Shown piece after piece: positions 10,218-10,434 of a stretch of 12,485 nucleotides of DNA. Each line of letters begins with the position of its first letter. The stretch's first letter is position 1. Position numbers and translations under genes: made by a program. The notes under the pieces are model-generated. The model searched no databases and was not told the DNA's origin. It saw nothing but the letters and a program-made list of their open reading frames with translations. The stretch comes from a virus: the UHGV virus genome UHGV-0140160. One strand, given 5' to 3'.

Positions 10218-10226
10218 TTATCCACA
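10218..10226. promoter_or_regulatory. DnaA box (TTATCCACA, perfect consensus) at the edge of the plasmid origin
   Basis: Exact 9-mer ttatccaca seen at 10218-10226, immediately followed by the GATC cluster and iterons. No second perfect box found nearby. Confidence 0.6.
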
Positions 10227-10230
10227 GGGT

Positions 10231-10289
10231 AGATCAAAACAAAAAGATCAAATGGAGATCAAAACAAGATCAAATAAAGAATAAGGATC
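10231..10289. repeat. Cluster of five GATC (Dam/SeqA) sites in AGATCAAA-type short repeats; AT-rich origin unwinding region
   Basis: GATC at 10232, 10246, 10257, 10268 and 10286 within 58 bp, four of them as AGATCAAA. Five GATC-containing heptamers next to DnaA boxes and iterons are, as I recall, the defining layout of the P1 oriR. Confidence 0.65.
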
Positions 10290-10329
10290 GCGGCAGCCCT
10301 TTATTTTCGGGCTTCTTAGCCCATCGCGC

Positions 10330-10434
10330 TCAACGCTAGCGGGTAAATCATCAACGCTAGCGGGTAAATCATCAACGCCAGCGGGTAAATCATCAACGCT
10401 AGCGGGTAGAAAAGATCAACGCTAGCGGGTATCC
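10330..10434 (+). repeat. Origin iteron array (incC-like): five direct ~21-bp iterons, consensus aTCAACGCTAGCGGGTAAAtc
   Basis: Copies start at 10330, 10351, 10372, 10393 and 10415, so four of five are exactly 21 bp apart (two helical turns). One copy has CCA in place of CTA. The array ends about 35 bp before the repA start. Confidence 0.85.

Follow-up and report, generated by a model that had tools for sequence, protein, structure and literature searches.

A well-described relative of the locus treated here is the plasmid replicon of phage P1. In the GenBank record of P1 the oriR region is annotated, in this order, with an 18-bp DnaA site, five Dam sites, five incC iterons, the promoter PrepA, the gene repA and nine incA iterons. 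By sequence, the 18-bp site consists of two tandem DnaA boxes. On the repA side of P1 the survey described below finds one DnaA box at one mismatch or less; we take P1 to have further boxes on this side beyond the left tandem pair, three in all.

The replicon of such an element is not necessarily a constant part of it. Within the P1 subgroup, an exchange of the replicase at a fixed position has been reported between IncY and p0111 (PMC7969092).

The window, as we call the whole stretch of 12,485 nucleotides (12.5 kb) from virus genome UHGV-0140160, carries a cassette of the same general plan. With a probability of about 85%, positions 10218-11490 are the replicon that maintains a D6-like E. 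coli phage-plasmid as a plasmid, by an iteron-controlled theta mechanism of the P1/RepFIB family.

Judged by gene content and gene order, the host element is a D6-like phage-plasmid that is related to P1, rather than P1 itself. The window is a piece of such an element and carries tail-fibre, baseplate, sit-like transglycosylase and pmgB-like genes. The order of the genes is that of D6, and virion genes collinear with those of D6 and P1 lie around the replicon slot. The region 1092-10203 matches D6 with 86% identity, with 29% of the query covered, and D6-like E. coli plasmids match the same query with 92-94% identity over 70-74% of its length. Contigs of sibling elements extend into the tub gene.

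In most D6-like relatives the homology of the backbone ends at 10203. The cassette follows in a slot of constant position, with the pmgB-like gene on one side and the c4-icd-ant immunity region on the other; other D6-like elements hold different Rep/iteron cassettes in this same slot. D6 and many of its relatives have a different cassette here, with a Rep of 251 aa, and a third type of cassette is found in NZ_CP085065.1. Since D6 keeps its own plasmid Rep in this slot, the cassette of the window occupies the place of the plasmid replicon.

Layout of the origin upstream of repA

For comparison, 29 loci were fetched from contigs representing one genome per species, 63 from IMG/VR and several from plasmids. 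The survey of the layout covers 25 genome loci, three plasmid loci and P1. The features of the window are collected in Table 1.

Table 1. Features of the replicon cassette and of its left flank in the window
Feature	Position	Strand	Remarks
sit-like transglycosylase gene	5332-9270		
pmgB-like gene	9325-10146		
DnaA box	10218-10226	+	TTATCCACA, perfect consensus; left edge of the replicon cassette
AT-rich block	10227-10289		30% G+C, five GATC; candidate strand-opening site and Dam/SeqA target
G+C-rich spacer	10290-10328		39 bp, 59% G+C
Five direct iterons	10329-10433	+	core TCAACGCTAGCGGGTA; equivalent of P1 incC
Candidate repA promoter	10407-10435	+	-35 TAGAAA (10407-10412), 17-nt spacer, -10 TATCCT (10430-10435)
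Degenerate DnaA-box remnant	10443-10451	+	TTACTAACA, 3 mismatches; from alignment with relatives
repA	10470-11354	+	294-aa Rep_3-family initiator
Iteron copy inside repA	10680-10695	+	TCAACGCTGGCGGGTG, 2 mismatches; 264 bp after iteron 5
Iteron copy inside repA	10944-10959	+	TCAACGGTAGCGGGTA, 1 mismatch; a further 264 bp on
Two inverted iterons	11363-11378, 11404-11419 (span 11363-11419)	-	counterpart of P1 incA
Imperfect palindrome	11424-11456		two P1-type iteron cores, ATGTGTGCTGACGGG / CCCTCCAGCACACAT, then AATTTTGTT
Degenerate direct iteron	11470-11485	+	TCAACGCTGGAGGGCA, 3 mismatches

A preliminary description of this DNA had noted one perfect DnaA box, a cluster of five GATC sites in 58 bp with four of them as AGATCAAA, and the arrangement of the P1 oriR. 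Each of these observations stands. The copy of TTATCCACA at the outer left end of the origin is the only perfect box in the 12.5-kb window. The cluster is recovered by a pattern search, and its density is rare among shuffled sequences (see the next section). The arrangement was compared directly with the annotated P1 record and has the same order and geometry. Five exactly phased iterons had also been claimed. Five copies do lie upstream of repA, but their spacing is 21, 21, 21 and 23 bp, so that the phasing is not exactly 21 bp throughout.

The iterons are direct repeats of 19 bp at intervals of about 21 bp, or some two helical turns, as in P1, placed directly upstream of repA. Their 19-bp frames start at 10329, 10350, 10371, 10392 and 10415. 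The TCAACGCTAGCGGGTA cores start at 10330, 10351, 10372, 10393 and 10416, with 0, 0, 1, 0 and 0 mismatches. At up to three mismatches the window holds 10 matches to the iteron, where 0.06 are expected. The wider last gap of 23 bp is kept in all four close relatives examined for it (L002, L037, L003 and L006). Iteron sequence differs where RepA differs: the Erwinia/Pantoea clade has ATCCACTGTACCGGGT and NZ_CP085065.1 has TGTTGACTATGTGCGAT. Such a joint change of iteron and RepA is the pattern expected of binding sites specific for an initiator.

Between the box and the iterons lie the GATC heptamers, within the AT-rich block, and then a G+C-rich spacer that is as long as that of P1. The AT-rich block also contains the 30-mer with the lowest stability in the scanned region 10150-10499. 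When the eight closest origins are aligned, four features are invariant: the DnaA core TATCCAC, the TAG motif after the box, the GGGT of every iteron and some parts of the spacer. The start of the spacer, AGCCCTTTA, is largely conserved in relatives.

A GATC cluster, a DnaA box and iterons recur, at unchanged distances from repA, in about 30 loci with RepA proteins that are 37-89% identical to the query. Nearly all surveyed loci have a cluster of 3-6 GATC sites located 185-290 bp upstream of the repA start, typically spaced by about 11 bp; in most family members it lies at -240 to -185. A DnaA box is found in the surveyed loci either at the outer edge of this cluster or in the interval from the iterons to repA, and in some at both.

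The number of DnaA boxes is less constant. Pairs are not universal in the family, and the left side carries from none to two boxes among the surveyed members; Leclercia pM17-63 has a tandem left pair exactly as in P1. At up to two mismatches, the window has no second box beside the first and none between the iterons and repA. The latter position varies in the family and is not strictly defining. All seven aligned relatives keep the core of a box on the repA side (TCCAC or TACAC, mostly TATCCAC), where the window has TTACTAACA. By this comparison the window has lost its repA-side box and is left with the minimum complement of boxes. One more candidate, TTATCCACT at 10534, differs from the consensus at one position. 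It is coding sequence inside repA (EVIHLL) and is not conserved in relatives, and it was rejected.

Alignments with homologues begin at residue 4 of the reading frame that opens with the GTG at 10461. This residue is the ATG at 10470, and AAGGTG lies 6 nt upstream of it, so that the gene repA most likely starts at this ATG and not at the GTG. Its product matches the Pfam family Rep3_N (E 1.2e-9; 39.1 bits against a cut-off of 22.4). A search of NCBIfam returned no family. RepA is homologous to P1 RepA, of the Rep_3/winged-helix fold family, with 39% identity over 270 aa in BLASTP (E 4e-58). Identity to the RepA of SSU5, and to those of plasmids and P1-like phages annotated as RepFIB, is about 43%. 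Closer relatives are the “RepB family” initiators of Klebsiella plasmids such as pKP3295-1 (80%), which is typed as IncFIB and IncHI1B in PLSDB. The closest are the initiators of Leclercia pM17-63 and of an 86-kb IMG/VR contig (88-89%). A minus-strand reading frame at 10316-10567 (83 aa) covers the iterons and the beginning of repA, and was treated as spurious.

The promoter of repA is less clear. No promoter upstream of the gene reached the threshold in a scan for the sigma-70 consensus, and two weak candidates that were read by eye are indistinguishable. In the candidate of Table 1 the 17-nt spacer is filled by iteron 5, and the -35-like hexamer lies within the spacer of the last iteron gap. 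Immediately after the last iteron, the window and the six relatives read for this feature have a TAnnnT hexamer. These features suggest, if weakly, a repA promoter that has iteron 5 in its spacer.

Taken by their statistics and their conservation, the elements of this origin are real and non-random. They make up an origin of the P1/RepFIB kind that is ordinary but complete, with no sign of a new mechanism.

GATC sites and Dam methylation

The five GATC sites of the block start at 10232, 10246, 10257, 10268 and 10286. Only one of 2000 dinucleotide-preserving shuffles reached five sites in 58 bp. Over the whole window, the number of GATC sites is close to chance (44 observed against 39 expected). 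The octamer AGATCAAA has four copies in the window, all within this block.

The preliminary description took the layout to imply regulation by Dam and SeqA. As worded, this goes further than the comparison allows, for the argument is one of analogy and close relatives carry anything from 0 to 5 GATC sites. In the homologous AT-rich block of the closest RepA subfamily, there are 4 sites in the Leclercia plasmid and the IMG/VR contig and 5 in the window, with lower counts in other members; A-rich heptamers replace the missing sites. Given this range, methylation cannot be obligatory for the initiator subfamily. Methylation sensitivity of the window origin, by analogy with P1, is plausible, at odds that we put at even or somewhat better, and it is not implied by the layout.

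An alternative reading is that the origin is P1-like in form and independent of Dam and SeqA, with methylation as a minor modulator at most. The GATC sites would then be a dispensable variant of A-rich heptamers (AGATCAA, AGAACAA or AGCTTAA) that form the unwinding element. It is supported by the lower counts of the subfamily: Klebsiella pKP3295-1, with a RepA that is 80% identical, has no GATC in the block, K. grimontii has 1, and Erwinia, Pantoea and Pluralibacter have 2-3, and the remaining layout is kept throughout. Likewise, the heptamers of the window are those of AGATCAAA and not the AGATCCA/C of P1. A dispensable variant does not readily account for a cluster so far above chance, nor for its constancy, since all five sites are invariant in 12 of 12 sibling contigs. 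Distant branches (P1, the IncFIB-like group and L005) moreover have 4-6 GATC sites with a spacing of about 11 bp in the same place. Such recurrence suggests repeated retention in Dam+ hosts. E. coli is Dam+, and it is the host of this element, as RepA is found in E. coli assemblies. On balance independence from Dam is unlikely, although it is the strongest of the competing explanations.

The range from 0 to 5 GATC sites among close relatives also forms a natural series, in which it may be followed how Dam methylation became coupled to P1-type origins.

Probable maintenance, further iterons and possible exchange of the replicon

Evidence for a replicon in use can be provided by observing the same cassette in other samples. 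Megablast of the replicon against INPHARED phages, PLSDB and the complete RefSeq E. coli genomes matched the flanks only and left origin and repA unmatched. Exact-pattern scans of IMG/VR and JGI metagenomes for the junction and for an iteron pair gave no matches. The cassette was at first taken as unrecorded, a view that was given up when an exact-protein look-up found RepA in E. coli draft assemblies. Nine sequences, of which four are full length, make up the 90% cluster of this RepA, and together they are counted on 35 contigs of up to 94.6 kb.

Twelve sibling loci from different E. coli samples are about 98% identical over the replicon, and six of their contigs are 89-92 kb long. The DnaA box, the GATC sites and the iteron spacing are invariant across all twelve. 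Relative to the window, iteron 3 of the siblings is changed at one or two positions, and downstream of repA they carry a third inverted iteron, which corresponds to a 17-nt insertion at 11402. All this fits a replicon that works and is maintained, with a control array of variable copy number. The cassette would thus define the plasmid replicon of a recurrent lineage of D6-like E. coli phage-plasmids of about 90 kb.

It is very improbable that the cassette is instead an inactive relic, with another replicon elsewhere on the element of roughly 90 kb driving maintenance. This reading can draw on three facts: the window covers no more than 12.5 kb of the element, its repA-side DnaA box has gone, and D6-like elements do carry iteron scars of former replicons. 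A relic would hardly be expected, however, to keep a repA that is intact, without frameshift and at 294 aa as long as its homologues, or origin iterons of which four are perfect against the consensus and the other is off by a single base. Nor would it be expected to show the conservation across sibling contigs described above. In addition, it lies in the very slot in which D6 and D6-like plasmids keep their only annotated plasmid Rep.

Beyond the region 10218-10434 the window contains five additional iteron copies that the preliminary description had missed. Two are within repA and three are downstream of it. The copy at 10944 has the same relative position in pM17-63 (locus L002) and in the IMG/VR contig (locus L037). 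The conservation of repA was examined in a set of three sequences, consisting of the window and these two relatives. In this set 66% of the repA columns are invariant, and 30% of the third codon positions. The first intragenic iteron lies within the longest invariant run (22 nt, 10678-10699), a length that was reached in only 14 of 5000 permutations. Only two runs in repA have 7 of 7 third codon positions invariant, and these coincide with the two intragenic iterons. The pattern points to selection on the intragenic iterons at the level of DNA, most simply as extra sites for RepA. They could serve in copy-number control, by handcuffing or titration, or as roadblocks to the transcription of repA. 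The repA gene of P1 has no intragenic iteron.

Downstream of repA there is a second set of iterons, as expected for the family, which consists of two inverted copies and one degenerate direct copy between 11363 and 11485. The number of inverted downstream copies is 3 in L037, 6 in L002 and 27 in L003; P1 has 9 downstream iterons in mixed orientation. The palindrome at 11424-11456 may be a RepA site, a terminator or a recombination scar. D6, pAPEC201603 and Leclercia pM17-63 share its right-hand core. A plain scar of a P1 replicon was considered for the two cores and not fully accepted, since the unrelated Leclercia plasmid has the same core as part of its downstream repeat units.

The elements together suggest how the replicon would work. 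RepA monomers would bind the five origin iterons, as indicated by homology and by the iteron sequence that changes with RepA, and host DnaA would bind the single box at 10218. RepA and DnaA would then open the adjacent block of GATC heptamers (30% G+C), a step for which the geometry matches that of P1, and the 39-bp spacer would hold this block in register with the iterons. The GATC sites, all five of which follow each other at intervals of about one helical turn, would be methylated in Dam+ E. coli, and once the DNA has replicated the hemimethylated sites could be bound by SeqA. By analogy, initiation would be methylation-sensitive as in P1. Overlap of the repA promoter with the last iterons would allow RepA to repress its own synthesis. 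The five further iterons would titrate RepA or handcuff with the origin, and would thus keep the copy number low.

That the strands open downstream of repA instead (11500-11560, 17-22% G+C), with the upstream array purely regulatory, is the least probable of the alternatives: the least stable 30-mer of the whole window does lie at 11503, and this AT-rich stretch adjoins the iteron copies at 11363-11485, but it belongs to the backbone/immunity region common to plasmids with a different Rep and has no DnaA box, the minimal origin of P1 is annotated upstream, and relatives differ in how many downstream iterons they have and in which orientation, as expected of a control locus.

The left edge of the origin bears on where the cassette came from. 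NZ_CP085065.1 and the window share an identical stretch of 32 bp at 10204-10235, which includes the DnaA box and GGGTAGATC, and diverge after it. Homology to the IMG/VR relative L037 begins exactly at 10218. Two diagnostic bases, A at 10226 and G at 10229, put the crossover at about 10229-10236. This region is inside an 18-bp sequence, box plus first heptamer, that is conserved across the family. The hypothesis is that the left edge of the origin represents a recombination junction, for which the placing of the crossover rests on few sites.

If this hypothesis is correct, the origin may be a chimera, with its DnaA box and left flank taken from the resident P1-type origin of the D6-like backbone and its heptamers, iterons and repA from an IncFIB-like plasmid. 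In that case, the module for host factors and the module for specificity would be exchangeable by recombination within the origin. Repeated exchanges would also explain the iteron scars in D6 and its relatives. D6 and pAPEC201603 have an iteron of the window type, TCAACGATAGCGGGTA, together with P1-type iteron cores downstream of their unrelated Rep, which is consistent with scars of earlier cassette replacements.

The combined proposal, that the iterons in repA are RepA control sites or roadblocks under DNA-level selection and that the origin became chimeric by recombination within it, is tentative, and we hold it at somewhat less than even odds. To our knowledge, neither intragenic iterons nor chimerism within the origin has been described for P1-family replicons.

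Comparison with known replicons

P1 and the window share the order of DnaA box, five GATC heptamers, G+C-rich spacer, five iterons, repA and downstream iterons, with the box in the same orientation and the GATC sites of the window in the place of the five annotated Dam sites of P1. The gap between the box and the first GATC is 5 bp in both (GGGTA-GATC in the window and GGATA-GATC in P1). Both have a spacer of 39 bp, with 59% G+C in the window and 62% in P1. Likewise, the last iteron gap is widened in both, to 23 bp in the window and to 22 bp in P1 (where the spacing is 21, 21, 21 and 22), and the annotated PrepA of P1 is nested in the last iterons, like the candidate promoter of the window.

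The two replicons differ in sequence and in several details. The iteron core is ATCAACGCTAGCGGG in the window and ATGTGTGCTGGAGGG in P1, and about 11 of 19 positions of the full iteron are shared by our own count. The heptamers are those of AGATCAAA in the window against AGATCCA/C in P1. On the left there is one DnaA box in the window against a tandem pair in P1, and on the repA side the window has none. The lineage of the window has 2-3 downstream iterons, compared with 9 in P1 and 27 in pKP3295-1. After the replicon, the window continues with the c4-icd-ant immunity region and has no parAB operon, unlike P1. With origin iterons of the type ATCAACGCTAGCGGG, a RepA of 39% identity and P1-type cores only at 11424-11456, the locus falls outside P1 sensu stricto (IncY). 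By these sequences the replicon is not P1's own, and its initiator is one of an IncFIB-typed subfamily.

The members of this subfamily with the closest initiators are pKP3295-1, pM17-63 and IMG/VR contig 3300045988_166783. Their RepA proteins are 80-89% identical to that of the window, and they share the iteron core TCAACGCYRGCGGGTA, the last gap of 23 bp and inverted downstream iterons. The intragenic iterons are common to the window, pM17-63 and the IMG/VR contig. All three relatives keep the repA-side DnaA box that the window is without, and pM17-63 adds its tandem left pair. For its part, pKP3295-1 has six origin iterons and no GATC cluster, besides its 27 downstream iterons. The flanks seen in these three show no similarity to the window, and their backbones are unrelated to D6. 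Their initiators are annotated only as “RepB family plasmid replication initiator”. In each of the related records opened, the annotation of the initiator goes no further than “RepB family” and the origin is unmarked.

Within the D6-like elements, the same slot is occupied by two other types. The D6 orf42 type (rep_cluster_1704) lies after the pmgB-like gene as in the window and has a 251-aa initiator and iterons unlike those of the window, which by sequence look F-like. The type of NZ_CP085065.1 (rep_cluster_2164) has a P1-like layout with a different RepA, also of 294 aa. Its 21-bp iterons are different, its heptamers are AGATCC, and its repA-side DnaA box is perfect and reversed.

A more distant comparison is given by the RepFIB-like replicons of SSU5, a Yersinia pestis plasmid record and Klebsiella plasmids annotated as IncFIB, for which RepA is at the 43% level given above. 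They have six GATC sites at a spacing of 11-12 bp, at the same distance upstream of repA as the cluster of the window. A single reversed DnaA box lies on the repA side, usually with none on the left.

The locus is thus a new member of the P1/RepFIB family and leaves the current picture of iteron origins unchanged. Its predicted incompatibility is with carriers of TCAACGCYRGCGGGTA iterons, such as some Klebsiella plasmids typed as IncFIB, rather than with P1/IncY.

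Phage genes on either side of the replicon

Phage genes lie to the left of the replicon, and a P1-type immI immunity region follows it directly (see table). The stretch on the left that resembles P1 record M81956 spans the constant portion of gene S, which encodes the tail fibre, together with the cixR inversion crossover site. The left part of the window probably contains a Cin-type invertible tail-fibre segment. A long open reading frame closer to the replicon has no Pfam match at E <= 0.01. Its counterparts in relatives bear the annotation Sit-like tail injection transglycosylase and range in length from 1064 to more than 1500 residues.

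Features of the window and their positions
Feature	Position	Remark
Gene S constant part and cixR	1092-1562	83% identity to M81956
Sit-like ORF	5332-9270	minus strand; 1312 aa
Segment common with NZ_CP085065.1	10204-10235	32 bp, identical to 13068-13099 there
Sixth GATC	10414-10417	
First iteron within repA	10680-10695	
Second iteron within repA	10944-10959	
Sibling insertion point	11402	17 nt
P1-type iteron cores	11424-11456	
immI region	11595-12485	
c4-a1b1 target	11595-11647	RF03163
C4 antisense RNA	11716-11801	RF01695, 71.9 bits
icd-like gene	11850-12065	NF033153
ORF6N-domain antirepressor-like gene	from 12065	cut by window end; 332 aa in siblings

Origin edge and sixth GATC

At the left edge of the origin, TGACTTTAACCTAT, the DnaA box and GGGTAGATC form a segment that recurs in identical form only in the NZ_CP085065.1 lineage. 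The RepA protein and the iterons of that lineage differ from those of the window. Such a shared segment suggests a cassette exchange through a crossover inside the origin.

At the other end of the origin, the spacer of a candidate promoter contains a sixth GATC, which overlaps iteron 5 at its 5' edge. A GATC is found at the equivalent spot, 52 to 56 bp before repA begins, in relatives from Erwinia, Pantoea and Pluralibacter; it is absent from this spot in the Leclercia plasmid pM17-63 and the IMG/VR contig 3300045988_166783.

Iterons downstream of Rep genes

The near-identical E. coli siblings (L100-L111) carry an insertion relative to the window that constitutes a third inverted downstream iteron, and in one of them, L102, a difference of equal length is seen near the same point. 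The copy number of the control array therefore varies among near-identical plasmids. An extended array occurs in the Klebsiella plasmid pKP3295-1, where 27 inverted iterons with a strict 42-bp period lie 3' of repA (3528-4620). The origin of this plasmid has six iterons and one left DnaA box, and its AT-rich block contains no GATC.

P1-type iteron cores are sited downstream of Rep genes in the window, phage D6 (2605-2665), pAPEC201603 (12205-12270) and pM17-63 (4075), and none of these Rep genes uses P1-type iterons. The core is the perfect 15-mer CCCTCCAGCACACAT; a second core, ATGTGTGCTGACGGG, is limited to the window, where the two pair as a hairpin followed by AATTTTGTT. In reference phage D6, a window-type iteron is retained beside the P1-type core, downstream of Rep. 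Possible explanations for these cores are scars, RepA sites of low affinity or a terminator.

Iterons within repA

Two further iteron copies lie inside repA, at an even spacing of 264 bp. In a comparison of three related genes (those of the window, pM17-63 and the IMG/VR contig; approximately 75% DNA identity), only two runs of 7/7 invariant third codon positions occur in repA, and both fall on the internal iterons. The repA of P1 contains no internal iteron.
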